A stretch of 64,000 nt of DNA from a phage, in the sequence record PZ212788.1; one strand, given 5' to 3'. Both the position numbers and the translations under genes were made by a program. Shown here in pieces: positions 4,901 through 60,798 of the stretch; within the stretch, counting starts at the first letter, position 1, and each line of letters opens with the position of its first letter. Below the pieces are notes generated by a model. That model had not been told where the DNA came from, did no database searches, and saw nothing but the letters and a program-made list of their open reading frames with translations.

Positions 4901-7900
4901 ATGGCTGATATTAAAGTTGTCAGAATTGAATCTCTTCCTGCCACTACCGCAGTGACAGAGGATGATTACCTGGTTGTTCAACAACCAGACCTGACTCGTC
5001 GTGTAAAAATTGGCGATGTTGTCCATGTGGATGGGACTGTTTCTCATGTAATCTCCTTTAAGGAAGGTGGTAAGTTAAACGGCCCAATGGATTTTGCCTA
5101 CTTCGAAGAGGAAGACCTCTACCTGCGTTGGAAAGGCGAATTTCCACACACTGTTCCTGCACTGTCTTCACCGTACTCCGATGGTGGGATTACTGACGCT
5201 GCATGGATGGTATATACAGATCCGTCCTTAAGGGAGGAGCTGGAATCTACTATTGGCGCATCTATGATCATGACAGCCGAAGGGCAGTCTGTCCAGGATG
5301 TGATGGATGTTACGGTTCAGACAGCTAACGATGCTAAAGCACTTGCACAGCGGGTAGATTTTGGTACAGTACATACTGTAGGCGATGTTATTCACCTTGT
5401 CAACTTTGTGGGTCCTGCAGTTATTGAGGAGGGAAGAACCACCAACTACCCTTCCGTAGCAGCTGGTGAAAGATTTCTGAACGGTGTGGTATCTCGTCGT
5501 GATACTACAACTGTTGATGGTATTTTCCGTGGCGCTACCACCGGAGCCATGTACACCATTGCAGTAACCAACGGTGTAGCAACAACGAAAAGAATAGCAC
5601 TTCGTGATGAATTTAAACGCCTAGAGGCAAACAACCCAACAAGAACAGTTATCCGTGCTGGAGATGATTTAAATACGGCAGGGTACTTGCAGCTTGATGC
5701 AACAGGCCGTTGGGGTATGTGGAACCAACAAACAGCTTCGTGGCAACCTCTTGCTATAGAGCAAGGCGGCACAGGGGCTAGAGATGCCGCTGGAGTCCGT
5801 ATCAATATCGGTGCTTTCTATAAGCAACGTGCAGCCCTTGAGCCAAATTTCAATATCAATAACTTGACTGGTAATCAGGATGGTGTATACTATCAGCCAA
5901 TGACTGCTTATGCAACTGAGGCGAATGGTTACCCTGCAGGTTCTGGTGCGGGTCACTTGATTGTTTGGCAGAACAATGCTAACGGCGGTACAGGTTGTCG
6001 TCAGGAATACTATCCATTCTCTAACGTAGATGTTTGGTATTTGAGAACCTATCAGGCCAACACAAATCAGTGGACTGCATGGCAGCCGATGGTCAGACCT
6101 CGTAACGATGATACCTTCAGATCTCATATTGGCCTTGGTAAAAACAACTCGCCAGCCTTCGGGCACCTTTACTTAGCTCAATACTCGGGAGATGTTAAAT
6201 CGGCCTCAGGTATTCTCCATGGAGATAAATATAATACTGACGGTGTCCTTGAGCATGGATATAGGATCTATTCTGAGGTAAGAAACGACAATAAGGCTTG
6301 GTTGACAATCCACCTGCACAAAGGCGCAAAAGGATCTGAAACTCATAGATATTTAGGCTTCCGTGAGGATGGGGTCTTAGATTGTCCTAAATATATGCAG
6401 GTTGGTGATCTGAACGGTCAGATGGCAAACTGGGGACTTGGAGAATGGATCCGCAGTTCAGGAGCAGAAAGAGGTTTCTGGGGATCTAAGAAAGCCGCCA
6501 AGATGGTCATCTGGGATGGCGGTATGGACGAGCAAGGTGAAGGAACGCTTGAGTGGGGTGTTTATAACAACCGGAAAGCCAAATGGGAACCACTACCGAT
6601 AGCTTGTGGTGGTACCAGTGCCAGGACTGTAGGGGATGCTCAAGCACAATTCAGAATCCCTCTGGCAGCAGGTGCTAGACCATATGTAAACCTGCCTAGA
6701 ACTGCAGCTATGCAGGACGGTAAGTATTATCCTATTATCGTCAGAACTGACCCCAACTTTGCAGCAACTATCGGGACAGATTTAACCATTGTCACCAGAT
6801 CTTCTTCTGGCGGCGACCCAATGAACTGTGCTACACTACAGTGTCACTACAGAACTGGTGGCTGGACAGACAGAGGTGATTCTTTCCAAGGGGTTATTAA
6901 TTTCTACCAAAACGAGAAAGCAATCCTCGGATGTGTATCTCCAACCAGAGGTAAGCAGGAGTATGTTGCATTCTATGTAGAGGCACGTGCATTCCCTGTT
7001 ACAGTATATGCTGGCGCTACTGTAATAGAAGTGTCAACCAGGGAGGCTGATTGGCAGGTAGGCAACGTGACAGGTAACCAAGATGGTGTCAAGTTCTGTG
7101 CTCCTCTGGAATCTGCAGATTTGAGTCTTGCAATCAAAGGTGATGATGTAACAAACACCAGACCTCTGGTTGAGTTCAAAGGAACATCAGGTTTCTACAC
7201 TGGTGGTGGAACTATGTGGCACTACCTGGGGACTCCTGAACGCTATGCAGTGATGAGCAAAATGAACATGCCTAAAGTCGAGCTTTGGGCAGACGGTATT
7301 GACTACATTTGTCCTGGTAGTCAGACCACTAGAAAAGCACTGTTCTCTAACGCAGGGTTCCAAGCTGCATCGGAAGGAACAGAGGATCTGATCAACAACA
7401 CCTTTACCTCTAAATGTGGTAATGGTGCAAGACTGCAAGGCCAGGCAGAGTTCAGATCTACTCCGGAAGCTGGTCAAGTTATCGTTCGCGATGTTGTAGG
7501 TACAGCTCATAAGTTCTACAATTTCAACAAAGACGGCACATTTTTCCCTCCTGGAGGCTATGTTTGCCAGACAGGTGCTGACTGGAACAATCAGTTTGGT
7601 AATACAAACCCCTCCAAGATAATGGCTGGCAATGTCAACGGGCCGGAAGGTTCGATGGTTGTTGGTGGACTGTCTGTGGCGTTTTCTGGAAACTATGCTT
7701 TCCAAATGGCTGGTCGCCTTGATCAGTTATACACTAGGTCTATCGAAGGTGGTAACCATAGGGCATGGAACAAGGTTATTCAGCACCGTGGTCAAGGTCT
7801 GGGGACAGAAGACCTTAATGCCTACGATGGTAGCCGTGAAGGTTTCTATCACCAGGGTTCAAACGCTGACGCACTTGTAACAGATCGTCACTACCCTGCT

Positions 7901-8713
7901 CCGTACGCTGGTACACTGCTTGTTTACAAAAACACAGCTAACAGACCTCAAGGTTGTGTGCAGGAATATATCACCTATTTTGGTGACAGATATACTCGTG
8001 CTGGTAACTACGTTGGCGATGTCTTTACTTGGGAAGAATGGAGACACGATGCTGGTAAGGGCATCCAGTTAAGACCTAATTACACTTTTGGTGAAACCAG
8101 TAATCAACTGGAAATTCATATCGGTGCTAATGGTCTTCCCTCCAACGCAGATGGCTTACCTAAGGATGATGCTGTACTCCATTATTGGGGTAACGGCAGC
8201 ACAGGGGATCGTCCAAACGTGTTAGAGTTTAAGGTTCGTGACGAGTCTCAAGCAAATTGGGTATGGCATTGCGGTACCTTGCCGGATAAATCAAGATATC
8301 TTTCTGTAAACGGTGCTGTGAATTGCACATCTGTCAATCAGAGTTCTGACAGAGACCTGAAAGATAACATAGCTGTTATTCCTGATGCGTTAGAAGCTAT
8401 CCGGAAGATGAAGGGTTATACTTACACTCTTAAAGAGAACGGTATGCCTTATGCAGGTGTTATAGCACAAGAGGTGCTTGAAGCGCTGCCGGAAGCAGTT
8501 AGCTCTTTCGTGCAAAGAAAGGAAATCCCAAACCCTGATCAGGATGGAACTCCTTTAGTAACAGAGGAAAGATTCTACAGCGTGGATTACGCAGCCGTAA
8601 CAGGCTTGCTTGTCCAGGTTTGCAGGGAACAGGACGATAAAATAACCGCCCTTGAGGAGCAGGTTAAAAAATTGACAGAGGTTGTTACTGGGTTGCAAGA
8701 GAAACTTAAGTAA
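4901..8713 (+). CDS. long tail fibre with C-terminal intramolecular chaperone (peptidase S74-like) domain
   Basis: 1270 aa; C-terminus ...DLKDNIAVIPDALEAIRKMKGYTYTLKENGMPYAGVIAQEVLEALPEAV... followed by a coiled coil matches the endosialidase/T5 pb1-type autoproteolytic chaperone; N-terminal anchor shared with 1598 ORF. Confidence 0.7.
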   Translation: MADIKVVRIESLPATTAVTEDDYLVVQQPDLTRRVKIGDVVHVDGTVSHVISFKEGGKLNGPMDFAYFEEEDLYLRWKGEFPHTVPALSSPYSDGGITDAAWMVYTDPSLREELESTIGASMIMTAEGQSVQDVMDVTVQTANDAKALAQRVDFGTVHTVGDVIHLVNFVGPAVIEEGRTTNYPSVAAGERFLNGVVSRRDTTTVDGIFRGATTGAMYTIAVTNGVATTKRIALRDEFKRLEANNPTRTVIRAGDDLNTAGYLQLDATGRWGMWNQQTASWQPLAIEQGGTGARDAAGVRINIGAFYKQRAALEPNFNINNLTGNQDGVYYQPMTAYATEANGYPAGSGAGHLIVWQNNANGGTGCRQEYYPFSNVDVWYLRTYQANTNQWTAWQPMVRPRNDDTFRSHIGLGKNNSPAFGHLYLAQYSGDVKSASGILHGDKYNTDGVLEHGYRIYSEVRNDNKAWLTIHLHKGAKGSETHRYLGFREDGVLDCPKYMQVGDLNGQMANWGLGEWIRSSGAERGFWGSKKAAKMVIWDGGMDEQGEGTLEWGVYNNRKAKWEPLPIACGGTSARTVGDAQAQFRIPLAAGARPYVNLPRTAAMQDGKYYPIIVRTDPNFAATIGTDLTIVTRSSSGGDPMNCATLQCHYRTGGWTDRGDSFQGVINFYQNEKAILGCVSPTRGKQEYVAFYVEARAFPVTVYAGATVIEVSTREADWQVGNVTGNQDGVKFCAPLESADLSLAIKGDDVTNTRPLVEFKGTSGFYTGGGTMWHYLGTPERYAVMSKMNMPKVELWADGIDYICPGSQTTRKALFSNAGFQAASEGTEDLINNTFTSKCGNGARLQGQAEFRSTPEAGQVIVRDVVGTAHKFYNFNKDGTFFPPGGYVCQTGADWNNQFGNTNPSKIMAGNVNGPEGSMVVGGLSVAFSGNYAFQMAGRLDQLYTRSIEGGNHRAWNKVIQHRGQGLGTEDLNAYDGSREGFYHQGSNADALVTDRHYPAPYAGTLLVYKNTANRPQGCVQEYITYFGDRYTRAGNYVGDVFTWEEWRHDAGKGIQLRPNYTFGETSNQLEIHIGANGLPSNADGLPKDDAVLHYWGNGSTGDRPNVLEFKVRDESQANWVWHCGTLPDKSRYLSVNGAVNCTSVNQSSDRDLKDNIAVIPDALEAIRKMKGYTYTLKENGMPYAGVIAQEVLEALPEAVSSFVQRKEIPNPDQDGTPLVTEERFYSVDYAAVTGLLVQVCREQDDKITALEEQVKKLTEVVTGLQEKLK

Positions 8714-56342: not shown

Positions 56343-56711
56343 ATGGAACAAATGAACGATCAAGAGTCGGTTGCGATGAACGAGCAAGAACAACCTCAAG
56401 AATTTTTCTTAGGGTTAAGTAAAGATCAAGTGTCTCTTTTGCTAGTGCTTTCTTCTTTCATGGGAAGACTTCAGGAGCTCACACAACAACCGGAGGCTGA
56501 ACAATTATTTCAGGCTCTGCGTGAAGAAGAAAAATATCGTCGTTTGGACTATGCCTTAGGTTGGGTAGCTCAACAACGAGATATGTTGATGGCCCTCTCT
56601 GGGACCACAAGTTTTGCAATGGGCCTGTTGGCTCAAGTTCAGGACAAATTAATTCAAGCAGGGTTTGCACACACGGCAAACACTAACGAAGAACAAGGAG
56701 ACAAAGAATGA
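56343..56711 (+). CDS. hypothetical protein
   Basis: 122 aa ORF. Confidence 0.4.
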   Translation: MEQMNDQESVAMNEQEQPQEFFLGLSKDQVSLLLVLSSFMGRLQELTQQPEAEQLFQALREEEKYRRLDYALGWVAQQRDMLMALSGTTSFAMGLLAQVQDKLIQAGFAHTANTNEEQGDKE

Positions 56712-57979
56712 GCGTTATTCAACAATTCGCTAACCCGATGAATCCGCGTGAAACTGTTTTACTGGCTCACGGCATGATTAAACGCGTCAGCATCAAGCCT
56801 ATCAAAGGTGCTGATCCTACAACAGGTATTAAAACCACTGTGTGGCAAGGTAAGAAAATTGAGTCCAGCCACACCATCTCTTTACTGATTTCTGAACTGG
56901 ATTCCTCTGATAACCTACTTCAAGGTGGTGAAGAAGTTTGGATCAGTATGGGCGATAAGCTGCTTAAACCGGGTCATCAAGACTCTGTCTCTGTTAAAAT
57001 TGATGACAAGTGGGAAACCGTAACGCCAGGATGGATCGTAAATATCCCTTTGAAGGCAAACGAGCATAACGGTAAGACCTACTACAAAGGCTCACTGGCT
57101 AAGATGGTTAAGCTGGGTGCAGGAGAGGCTCCAGCAGCGACTCAGCAGCAAAAACAGCAACAAGGTGCACAATCACAAGGCCAGAAGCAGAAACCTCAGC
57201 AGAATGCCAATCAGGACGTTTTACGCATCTATGGTGATGTGACTCAGATTGTTGGCAACGTGGTTACTGTTAATGACCACAAGATTGGCGAAGGTGCTAT
57301 GGTTGTAACTGATGAGCAGCTTAAAGACCTGGTGGTAGGTGGTCGTGTTGCAGCCATTGTTGACAAAGACACCGGAAACATTATCAGTGGTTTCAAAGCC
57401 TATCCTCCTAAGGCAGAGAACGGCACTCAAGGCTCTGGTGGCAAGCGTAAATCCTCTTACGACCCTATCGGTGTGGAGACGGGACATAGCATCAATGCGT
57501 TGCAGATCATCCTGGATCGCGGGTTTAAGGTAGACGACCCACTGGGCGTGGCTAAAACACTGCACGTAGTCACCATTGAGCTTAAGAAAGAGTATGCTCA
57601 AGCCACCAACCGAACTGAAGATGAAGTAGGTGCCAGTGTCGGTAATGCGGTGTTGAACGCTTGTCGCCGTATTGACAAGAAAACGAAAGTTGATGATTTT
57701 GCAGTGGCAATTACTGCAGAAGCAAAAGATGTCTTGACTAATCTAGCTGAGCCGTTGTACGATTGGATCAAGAACGGTGCTGAGTCCACTGACCATCAAG
57801 AACCTCAGGCTGCCAAACAGGAAGCAGCTCCACAGCAAAACACTGTAGACGCTCCTCCTGTAAATGATGGGGAAGATGACCCGATGGATCAGAATCCAGC
57901 ACAGTATGACTTCTGTGATGACATACCTTTCGCTCCGGTGGGTTTGCAATATGGAAAAAGCAGAATCCACGCATTGTAA
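56708..57979 (+). CDS. single-stranded DNA-binding protein-like, with internal acidic DDIPF motif
   Basis: Gln-rich linker ([26 protein letters not shown]) and acidic region ...[19 protein letters not shown] typical of SSB C-terminal tips, but followed by 15 extra residues before the stop. Confidence 0.5.
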
Positions 57980-58574
57980 GAGGTGCATCAAGTGCGGAGA
58001 GGTGAAAAACCTCTCCGAGTTCTACAAACACCCAAAGATGTCTGACGGTCATCTTAATAAGTGCAAAGAGTGTTGCAAGAAGGCCAGCAGGGAGGCTGAC
58101 AGGTTTTCCCACGACTCTTCAGAAAAAGGTGTAATACGCGTGCTGTACAAGGCTCAAAAGTGCAACAGCAAGCAAAGAGGCCACCCTCCTCCGACTTACA
58201 CCAAAAAAGAGTTTAAGGAGTGGCTATACCTGAACGGTTACAAAGAGTTGTATGATCAGTGGGTAGCCAGCGGATACGACAAAAGGAAAAAGCCTTCTTG
58301 TGACAGGATAGATGATTTCAAAGGGTACTCTTTTGATAATATCCGTTTAACGACTTGGGGAGAAAATAAAGACAAGCAGACGGAGGATATTCTGTTGCAT
58401 AGAAGCACCAGCGGTAGACGGTGTAAAAATGTAAGAAGGCTGGACATGAATGGAAACGTTCTTAAAGAATGGGTATCCCACAATTCTTGTAGAAGAGAAA
58501 CCGGAATATGTGTTGATTACTACATTCATGAAAAAATTCCAGCCCCCGATGGATACCTCTATGAATACTTTTAG
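57951..58574 (+). CDS. HNH-family endonuclease (free-standing, zinc-finger N-terminus)
   Basis: [10 protein letters not shown]...CKECC cysteine cluster; [27 protein letters not shown]-like core; start trimmed to ATG 57951, overlapping the 3' end of the SSB-like gene. Confidence 0.5.
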
Positions 58575-58589
58575 CACCTAACTAACATA

Positions 58590-58618
58590 GCCCTGCCCGA
58601 AAGGGTGGGGCATTTTTG
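58590..58618 (+). terminator. rho-independent terminator (GAAA-loop family, copy 2)
   Basis: gccctgccc-gaaa-gggtggggc followed by atttttg. Confidence 0.7.
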
Positions 58619-58636: not shown

Positions 58637-59053
58637 ATGACATTAGAAGATATCATTGTTAAACCTGAGAACTATGACCAATACAACCTGTCAACTCAAT
58701 CTGTAGACCTTGGATGCGCCACAGTTAGTGCGTGGCTGGTTAACGGAAAAGAGCTGGACAAGTGCTTAGAAGCTCACATGTCTGTTAACAAGTTTCTGGA
58801 TGAAAATACTCACTGGCTTGAGGGTGCAGGAGTATATGCTTCATGGTTGGAAAGTATGGGATTCGACTACCAATCTGAAGAAGGGTGGTGGAGCTATTTA
58901 GCTATCTGCCCAGAGACGCTGCAATGCTTCATGAAATATTCTGAAGATTTGGAGTACCGGGCGGTGGTTGATAGTGCTATTGCCCGTTATAGCCGTAAAC
59001 CTTTTTCCCACGACATTAAAACTGTGGAAGAGTTTGTTGAAGTTTTCTGTTGA
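58637..59053 (+). CDS. hypothetical protein
   Basis: 138 aa ORF with AAGGAGA RBS. Confidence 0.45.
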   Translation: MTLEDIIVKPENYDQYNLSTQSVDLGCATVSAWLVNGKELDKCLEAHMSVNKFLDENTHWLEGAGVYASWLESMGFDYQSEEGWWSYLAICPETLQCFMKYSEDLEYRAVVDSAIARYSRKPFSHDIKTVEEFVEVFC

Positions 59054-59078
59054 CACAGGTGGAAAGGTGTGCAATTAT
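59050..59078 (+). promoter_or_regulatory. possible promoter (TTGACA-17-TGcAATTAT)
   Basis: Consensus -35 59050-59055; weak -10 with upstream TG. Confidence 0.3.
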
Positions 59079-59415: not shown

Positions 59416-59841
59416 ATGATCTATGAAATGCCAAAACTGATTCGTGACGATGCCCAAAACGCCCACACCTTTATCATGGGCAAGCGCATGGATATTATTT
59501 GTCATAAAGATTTCTGGGAAGGTAGTTACTTCACAGAATATTTTGGTAAACTGGATAATGGTCTGCTGATCCAGTTCTACACCGATGCGGAAAACAATAT
59601 CTGCTGGGAGTTCGAAACTGAAGATATCCATAAACTTTTCACCTTCCTAGGTATTAAGGTTGAGGCCAAGTTTGAAGAAGGCGAGTGCGACGATTGTGGA
59701 TTCTACGAGGTAACAGATTTCTATCTCCCAAGTGGTGAGAACCTTTACTATGAAAGCCACTTCGGCAACTCAAATATGCCACAAGGTTGGGATGAGTTTT
59801 TTGAAATTGCGGAAGAGGAGCTGACATACCGTGATTATTGA
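59416..59841 (+). CDS. hypothetical protein
   Basis: 141 aa ORF with GGAGAA RBS. Confidence 0.4.
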   Translation: MIYEMPKLIRDDAQNAHTFIMGKRMDIICHKDFWEGSYFTEYFGKLDNGLLIQFYTDAENNICWEFETEDIHKLFTFLGIKVEAKFEEGECDDCGFYEVTDFYLPSGENLYYESHFGNSNMPQGWDEFFEIAEEELTYRDY

Positions 59842-60289
59842 TACTGTAGCGGGAGATTTAATCTCCCTTTTTAAGAGCGGTGCTGGTCACCTGATCCACG
59901 GTTGTAACTGCTTTCATACAATGGGTGCAGGCATAGCGAAAGATATTGCCCGTGAGTTCCCTCAAGCACTGGCAGCCGACAAAGAGACTGCCTATGGTAA
60001 TCTGGACAAGCTGGGTATGTTTTCTTGTTGGGAGCATTTTGCCAAGAACAGGGTCGTATATGGAATCAACCTGTATACCCAGTTCTACCCAGGGCCCAAT
60101 GCTGAATACTTCTCAATAATGAAAGGTTTTGAGCGAGTCAACGAGGTATTCAAAGGTGTGTCATTGCCGTTCTACATTCCTAAAATTGGATGCGGTATTG
60201 GCGGTCTAAAGTGGGAACATGTAGAAGATGTAATTAATCTTGCAACCACAGATATTGATGTGGTTGTAGTAGAGTACAAAAAGTGTTGA
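59831..60289 (+). CDS. macro domain protein (ADP-ribose binding/processing)
   Basis: HLIHGCNCFHTMGAGIAKDIA matches the macro-domain NAAN..L..GGGVA.AI region; later KIGCGIGGLKWEHV matches the G.GI.G motif; GTG start. Confidence 0.6.
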   Translation: MIIDTVAGDLISLFKSGAGHLIHGCNCFHTMGAGIAKDIAREFPQALAADKETAYGNLDKLGMFSCWEHFAKNRVVYGINLYTQFYPGPNAEYFSIMKGFERVNEVFKGVSLPFYIPKIGCGIGGLKWEHVEDVINLATTDIDVVVVEYKKC

Positions 60290-60540: not shown

Positions 60541-60735
60541 ATGAGAAACAAGAAAGAGCTTTACTCTGGTGAGTGGATCAACGATCAACAGGTGGGAGAG
60601 GTAACCTGCTTCCGATGTTTTACCAGGTACAATCTTAAAACTGCACCAAAAAGTGTTCCAAAGACTGATGGTTATTACATAAAAGAACCTCATTGCCCAA
60701 AATGTAAATGCCGATTATACTGGAGTAACCTGTAA
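60541..60735 (+). CDS. small zinc-ribbon protein
   Basis: Start trimmed to ATG 60541; CFRCF ... CPKCKC pattern. Confidence 0.45.
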   Translation: MRNKKELYSGEWINDQQVGEVTCFRCFTRYNLKTAPKSVPKTDGYYIKEPHCPKCKCRLYWSNL

Positions 60736-60798
60736 AAGATTGACATCTGAAAACTGCAGTGTATAATATATGCATAAACTAACAGAGAGTGATGTATT

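Follow-up and report, generated by a model that had tools for sequence, protein, structure and literature searches.

Introduction

In phage T4, a DarTG2 challenge of a transposon library (HIDEN-SEQ) has given tk.4 as the single significant hit, and a clean knockout of tk.4 sensitises the phage to DarTG2; the gene was named adfM and its authors inferred an enzymatic removal of ADP-ribose from DNA (bioRxiv 10.1101/2025.11.20.689424). This evidence comes from a preprint and consists of genetics alone, the DarTG2 phenotype having been shown for T4; a library of the rV5-like phage Bas54 was also built in the same study, in which the DarTG2 challenge is reported for T4 (bioRxiv 10.1101/2025.11.20.689424). 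The phenotype of tk.4 fits the observation that T4 without adfA and adfN stays resistant to DarTG2 (PMC11825919). AdfN of T4 (gp30.3) and the other phage NADAR anti-DarTG1 factors follow the same strategy, in which an orphan phage enzyme erases the DNA ADP-ribosylation made by DarT, but these have an unrelated fold, are specific for guanosine (DarT1) and are inactive against DarTG2 (PMC11825919). Phage T5 is sensitive to DarTG2 (bioRxiv 10.1101/2025.11.20.689424; PMC11825919).

In the year 2026, gp104 of PhiKZ was also named 'AdfM'; it removes the ADP-ribose placed by DarT2 from DNA in vitro, PhiKZ and PhiPA3 being protected, and its N23A mutant is crippled (Cell Rep 2026, PMC13309987). In the DarG antitoxin, the K80A mutant is inactive, Lys being indispensable, and the N22A mutant of TaqDarG is crippled. 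SCO6735 of Streptomyces coelicolor, a bacterial chromosomal gene product and not a phage one (as is BT1257 of Bacteroides thetaiotaomicron), can in vitro take off the ADP-ribose that DarT has attached to thymidine in ssDNA, and it saves both E. coli and S. coelicolor from DarT; activity is lost in the mutants Q85A and Q85E, catalysis is proposed to be water-mediated, and the enzyme acts on protein substrates too (PMC9411070). The idea of a phage macrodomain acting against DarTG2 is hence already published for the T4 orthologue of the gene studied here and, non-orthologously, for PhiKZ.

Results and Discussion

Gene model and start codon

The gene was found in the window, which is the whole stretch of 64,000 nucleotides of phage DNA that was analysed. 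The window is from an rV5-like Vequintavirus, an E. coli myovirus of roughly 136-140 kb; its first 25 kb hold the baseplate and lateral tail-fibre genes of rV5-like phages, and the 4-kb stretch around the macro gene matches 122 phage records with 80-99% identity. The macro gene itself is found in about 120 rV5-like records.

59815..59820, + strand: Shine-Dalgarno sequence GAGGAG, 10 nt 5' of the GTG start and within the 3' end of the upstream ORF, read from the sequence
59831..60289 (stop codon included), + strand: stand-alone macrodomain coding sequence of 152 aa, orthologue of rV5 gp204 and T4 Tk.4 (AdfM) by PHROG, Pfam, alignment and structure model

The first-pass annotation had described a 152 aa ORF at these coordinates on the + strand with two glycine-rich motifs, and it is present exactly so; direct reading places the motifs at residues 23-40 (HGCNCFHTMGAGIAKDIA) and residues 118-131 (KIGCGIGGLKWEHV). 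The start codon is GTG in the ORF listing as well as in the sequence read directly, and this start is supported by the Shine-Dalgarno sequence, by the alignment with T4 Tk.4, which runs end to end from residue 1, and by the rV5 gene model rv5_gp204, which is identical to the GTG-start model of the window. In MiataMamis (PP925834.1, 21922) the macro gene has been begun at an internal ATG, giving 369 nt and 122 aa. This start would remove the invariant HGCNC loop, therefore the GTG start is the better one and the MiataMamis model is probably wrong. Start-codon translation aside, the protein is the same in six records including Murica, MiataMamis and WalterGehring, and the comparison with the rV5 gene gave a dN/dS of 0.19, a value resting on just 7 synonymous and 5 nonsynonymous differences. 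The public labels for the gene are 'hypothetical protein', 'phosphatase', 'tk.4: phosphatase', 'macro domain protein' and 'Poa1p-like family protein'.

Family, fold and class

The macro domain that had been proposed from the sequence was borne out by profile searches far above chance. Pfam Macro (PF01661), whose gathering score is 22, was matched with 25.9 bits (E=1e-5), which places the protein in the superfamily, and PHROG 335 ('phosphatase') with E=1.4e-59. The protein has 279 homologues at E<=1e-3, and precomputed PF01661 assignments are found on homologues. The DarG profiles of NCBIfam (E=1.7e-12) and PADLOC (E=1.4e-13) were matched as well, both in the macro part. The best PDB profile matches were SCO6735 and BT1257 (E about 2e-14 to 4e-14).

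The AlphaFold2 model built from a 92-sequence alignment, which is of very high confidence (pLDDT 96.3, pTM 0.91), has predicted the three-layer alpha/beta/alpha macro fold with a mixed beta-sheet, in agreement with the macro fold expected earlier. In the Foldseek comparison with PDB, TARG1, TaqDarG, Poa1p and MtbDarG ranked top with E values of 7e-10 to 2e-8 and a TM of about 0.75. In sequence and structure the protein is nearer to TARG1, DarG, Poa1p and SCO6735 (ALC1-like) than to the MacroD, Af1521, viral, PARG and macroH2A classes. On the basis of the profile matches, the AlphaFold2 model and the Foldseek ranking, it is a macrodomain of the TARG1/DarG/Poa1p/SCO6735 class and not of the YmdB/Af1521 type. 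Of the structures recommended for comparison in the first-pass annotation, DarG was therefore a match of class, whereas YmdB and Af1521, being of MacroD type, were off target.

The DarG2 antitoxin proper was considered and rejected. The NCBIfam equivalog NF048014 was matched with 47.3 bits against a cut-off of 250, over profile positions 4-144 of 338; the C-terminal DarT-binding domain is absent, the 152 aa being the macrodomain alone; Gln84 stands in place of the catalytic Lys80, and no darT is adjacent. This low score also counts against the reading of the protein as an eraser of DarT2 modifications, and so does the comparison with single proteins, in which DarG stands no nearer to the window protein than TARG1, SCO6735 and BT1257 do (35-40 bits each).

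Relationship with T4 Tk.4

The alignment with T4 Tk.4 covers residues 1-150 on 1-152 in 153 columns with 39% identity (E=1e-43), and the motifs HGCNCFHTMG, NLYTQF-PGPN and P-[KR]-I-G-x-G-I-G are common to both proteins. In the reverse direction, tblastn with T4 Tk.4 matched the window at 59831-60280 alone, and the macro gene is named tk.4 in the rV5 annotation. By sequence comparison, the macro gene and T4 tk.4 (adfM) are orthologues, the former in a Vequintavirus. The two genes are alike in length (about 150 aa), stand alone amid small genes of early type in a large E. coli myovirus, and both have Gln at the position of the DarG Lys. They differ in that T4 belongs to Straboviridae and the window to Vequintavirinae, and in that tk.4 follows vs, whereas the window gene follows a 141-aa ORF. 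The suggestion that a stand-alone phage macrodomain could reverse DarT ADP-ribosylation of DNA is thus supported by the genetics of the T4 orthologue, which is 39% identical. A shift of substrate is possible at this identity.

As a small correlation test, a Tk.4-family ORF was searched in nt 1-86,000 of the DarTG2-sensitive phage T5 and none was found (best E=0.1). The part of T5 past nt 86,000 presumably consists mostly of late structural genes and the right terminal repeat. The T5 early region was seen to hold two ORFs annotated as Sir2 (NAD-dependent deacetylase/ADP-ribosylase), T5.105 (L005 8589-9095) and T5.102 (7448-8266).

Active site and the probable role of Gln84

The residues lining the predicted ADP-ribose site are encoded by three segments of the gene.

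59897..59938, + strand: first ADP-ribose-binding loop, codons 23-36, H-G-C-N-C-F-H-T-M-G-A-G-I-A, with N26 invariant
60068..60082, + strand: N-L-Y-T-Q, codons 80-84, with invariant Q84 at the position of DarG K80 and TARG1 K84
60179..60205, + strand: glycine-rich diphosphate-binding loop, codons 117-125, P-K-I-G-C-G-I-G-G, with P117, G120 and G122 invariant

Among the 92 aligned homologues, G24, N26, C27, M31, G34, A36, D50, N80, Y82, Q84, P117, G120 and G122 are invariant, and H23, T83 and G125 are nearly so. N26 aligns with N23 of PhiKZ AdfM, N22 of TaqDarG and N27 of SCO6735, and H23 aligns with H24 of SCO6735 and H23 of Poa1p. The macro protein has 'YTQ' where DarG, TARG1 and PhiKZ gp104 have 'PTK', so that in comparison to the DarG2 macrodomains of T. 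aquaticus and M. tuberculosis the catalytic Lys80 is replaced by Gln. The same replacement is present in SCO6735 and BT1257 ('NMIGQH'), Q84 matching Gln85 of SCO6735. Since SCO6735 removes ADP-ribose from thymidine and needs Gln85 to do so, a macrodomain of the Gln type is capable of this reaction.

The window protein shares with SCO6735 the His, Asn and Gln residues and the P-[KR]-I-G-C-G loop. On the other hand, two features of SCO6735 that are implicated in DNA binding are missing: its Lys34 is Ala33 here, and the longer mobile loop with Lys89 is absent, the loop after Q84 being 5-6 residues shorter and having no Lys. The identity to SCO6735 and BT1257 is 23-36% over partial alignments (35-39 bits). 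The protein has a pI of 5.9 and is without global electropositive character. The missing catalytic Lys, the absence of Lys34 and of the Lys89 loop of SCO6735, and this pI are points which stand against the reading of the protein as an eraser of DarT2 modifications.

The kinship with SCO6735 also brings in an alternative, that the protein erases other or broader ADP-ribose substrates (uracil-linked on RNA, or Glu/Asp-linked on proteins) and counters other defences or toxins instead of, or besides, DarTG2. TARG1-like macrodomains including SCO6735 of the Gln type hydrolyse uracil-ADP-ribose on ssRNA too, and SCO6735 is active on proteins (PMC9411070); the wide spread of the stand-alone clade in phages of many hosts suits a general-purpose eraser, and a bacterial member of the clade is found in a housekeeping context without DarT. 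Against this, the sole known phenotype of the clade is specific for DarTG2 (T4; bioRxiv 10.1101/2025.11.20.689424). SCO6735 does not act on RNA that is ADP-ribosylated at the 2'-OH, nor, as per the results of the paper, on 5'-phosphate-linked ADP-ribose, the discussion of the same paper stating the opposite. The adenine ADP-ribosylation of CmdT type has so far been described as irreversible. To our knowledge, no bacterial anti-phage system makes uracil-ADP-ribose. We consider this alternative rather unlikely.

Conservation of the site bears also on a non-catalytic role, in which the protein would be a binder or sponge of ADP-ribose-derived immune signals (e.g. the gcADPR of Thoeris) or a regulator of phage ADP-ribosyltransferases. 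Such signals had been mentioned in the first-pass annotation, as something the protein might degrade, and no support was found for their degradation. The nearest class consists of hydrolases, and the (near-)invariance of Gln84, N26 and H23 is what a catalytic site would show, the equivalent Gln being essential for catalysis in SCO6735. A non-catalytic role of either kind is highly improbable.

Two proteins named AdfM and the spread of the Tk.4 clade

PhiKZ gp104 is, like the window protein, a stand-alone phage macrodomain of the TARG1-like class and has the Asn in common with it (N23 there, N26 here), but it has the catalytic Lys (PTK), a PPLG loop and is imported into the phage nucleus. The two proteins are 22% identical (27 bits), and the motifs of the gp104 type differ from those of the window protein. 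In the pairwise set, three pairs were tight: gp104 and MtbDarG (87 bits, 40% identity), SCO6735 and BT1257 (163 bits, 56%), and T4 Tk.4 and the window protein (128 bits, 39%). The Tk.4-type proteins of T4 and the window gave only 21-27 bits with gp104. DarG, SCO6735, BT1257 and TARG1 are all at about the same distance from the window protein (35-40 bits), with gp104 the furthest. As gp104 pairs with MtbDarG and the window protein with T4 Tk.4, the two are set apart; from these sequence comparisons, AdfM of PhiKZ looks like a captured DarG macrodomain, and the Tk.4 type is a separate clade bearing Gln. Independent recruitment of the Tk.4 clade and of the DarG-derived PhiKZ AdfM is well supported. 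The name 'AdfM' has been given independently by two groups to these non-orthologous macrodomains, a collision of nomenclature which is misleading for annotation transfer.

In the tblastn search at E<=1e-3, matches were obtained in 2,831 of the 50,697 phage records, the weakest of which may belong to other macro clades; T4-like, rV5-like, FelixO1-like, Pakpunavirus and Vi1-like phages are included. A longer clade member of 239 aa was located in a T4-like phage contig. The bacterial relatives were considered as a trace of an antitoxin origin and this was rejected, the Pelagimonas member being stand-alone, in a housekeeping context and with no DarT neighbour. We put forward, tentatively, that the Tk.4 clade is a phage-dominated, Lys-less, Gln-dependent and independently recruited group, whose members may be SCO6735-like erasers of ADP-ribose on a broad range of bases and proteins. 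In that case their role would reach past DarTG2 to further ADP-ribosylating defences or toxins. A broader substrate range of this kind, for example on uracil ADP-ribosylation of RNA, is speculative.

Genomic neighbourhood

The macro gene follows the DNA polymerase gene at a distance of about 6 kb, at the distal end of a replication module containing rIIA/B, helicase, methyltransferase, primase-helicase and polymerase. It is one of a long series of small ORFs, all in one direction and without assigned function, that have sigma-70-like promoters.

57864-58574: endonuclease VII/HNH-type putative homing endonuclease (PHROG 1035, E=1e-40), probable true start near 57951
58590..58611, + strand: strong intrinsic-terminator-like hairpin (9 bp, 7 GC, then a T-run) closing the preceding endonuclease gene; upstream limit of the unit
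59050..59078, + strand: candidate sigma-70-like promoter, TTGACA-17-AATTAT with TG, by consensus match only; could drive a three-gene unit ending in the macro gene
59416..59841, + strand: upstream ORF of 141 aa (PHROG 8157), its stop overlapping the macro start by 11 nt
60541-60732: small downstream ORF with a phage zinc-binding domain (PF23903, E=8e-23), the sole neighbour with a Pfam match
60740-60767: perfect sigma-70 consensus, corresponding to the annotated rV5 promoter P205

The 141-aa ORF and the macro gene are probably co-transcribed; the RB49 homologues of this ORF sit elsewhere and not beside tk.4. The 5' end of the homing endonuclease overlaps the preceding ORF of 423 aa (56708-57979), which has no Pfam match. 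The 'early region' in which the first-pass annotation had placed the gene was a deduction and not an observation; the promoter-like sites and the position of the gene make early expression through the host sigma-70 polymerase plausible.

A functional partner gene was sought nearby and none was recognised, as PHROG and Pfam scans of the 10-11 adjacent ORFs returned only families of unassigned function, the endonuclease VII/HNH and the zinc-binding domain. No darT or ADP-ribosyltransferase match was found among the neighbouring ORFs in these scans, and no ADP-ribosyltransferase among the annotated genes of the 44-kb homologous region, which argues against a regulator of phage ADP-ribosyltransferases. 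The occurrence of the clade in many phage groups by tblastn speaks against such a regulator too; for many of these groups we know of no Alt/Mod-like ADP-ribosyltransferase.

The neighbourhood bears likewise on the function implied by the 'phosphatase' and 'A1pp' labels, namely an ADP-ribose-1''-phosphate phosphatase (Poa1p-like) or an O-acetyl-ADP-ribose deacetylase clearing NAD-derived metabolites. Poa1p is a close structural relative and HxCNC is common to both proteins. However, the label is historical and was transferred by homology, the neighbour scans gave no 2'-phosphotransferase, RNA-ligase or sirtuin partner and thus no pathway context, and the DarTG2-specific phenotype of T4 tk.4 would be left unexplained; weak Appr1p phosphatase activity is a side reaction of many macrodomains. 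Such a metabolic function is judged to be improbable.

In comparison to rV5, about 180 bp with rv5_gp201 (a 64-aa RB49-like ORF; rV5, L001 8721-8915) are apparently missing from the window at about 60735-60740, as deduced from coordinate offsets and the two-piece rV5 match. This gap is just upstream of the promoter at 60740-60767, and the gene layout of MiataMamis is that of the window. Among the related records, 16-18 are named 'Campylobacter phage' with C. jejuni as host (including MG065646, MG065647, MG065655 and MG065659) and share 95-97% identity with rV5-like phages of E. coli over both the tail-fibre region and the macro locus. These host labels look doubtful, for example if E. coli phages were carried along in the preparations.

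Hairpin inside the macro gene

A terminator-like hairpin, GGGAGAT-TTA-ATCTCCC followed by TTTTT, is present at 59851-59867 of the window (codons 7-13), 20 nt past the start codon, and several records have a 'terminator' annotated at this site. In tk.4 of T4 and SP18 a hairpin is found at the equivalent codons with another stem (GGGCGA...TCGCCC), through a compensatory A:T to C:G swap that changes Ser12 to Ala. Four other homologues (JD18, AB-Navy97, HY02 and Entb_45) do not have the hairpin, nor is it unusually stable (z=-1.67), since 13 of the 200 shuffles fold equally well. A conserved regulatory element is thus unproven, since the hairpin is missing in four homologues, has ordinary stability and can be yielded by the codons for G-D-x-I/V-S/A-L-F; it may be a by-product of the codons.

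Proposed mechanism

From the analogy with T4 and SCO6735, it is likely that the macro gene encodes an AdfM-like ADP-ribosyl glycohydrolase, which would reverse the ADP-ribosylation of thymidine by DarT2 and let the phage escape DarTG2. In this mechanism, the host sigma-70 RNA polymerase would transcribe the gene early in infection. Infection would release the host DarT2, thymidines in ssDNA TNTC motifs of the phage would be ADP-ribosylated and replication would be blocked. N26, T83 and the two glycine-rich loops (residues 31-36 and 119-125) would hold the ADP-ribose, and Gln84 probably positions the distal ribose for hydrolysis by a water molecule, as proposed for SCO6735. Cleavage of the N-glycosidic bond between base and ribose would then restore replicable DNA. 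The macro fold and class, the orthology with Tk.4, the genetics of T4 and the biochemistry of SCO6735, with the same reaction known from relatives of the Lys type too, are the demonstrated elements of this proposal; the same activity and the same target, as well as the early timing, would be extended from them to the window protein.

Conclusions

This study has identified in the Tk.4 clade an invariant Gln of the SCO6735 type without the Lys of DarG, and the clade is not nested in DarG, which is new here. Since the widespread Tk.4 clade works without the catalytic lysine of DarG and TARG1, 'AdfM' now stands for two non-orthologous enzymes, probably differing in their chemistry. The labels 'phosphatase' and 'hypothetical protein', together with at least one truncated gene model, are due for replacement. 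The split between Gln and Lys is relevant to annotation, to inhibitor design and to forecasting which ADP-ribosylating defences a phage evades. The enzymatic erasure of DarT2 DNA ADP-ribosylation, which is known from T4 and the nucleus-forming jumbo phages, would be extended to Vequintavirinae, which are of interest in phage therapy and in the biocontrol of O157, and rV5-like phages are predicted to have an intrinsic resistance to DarTG2.
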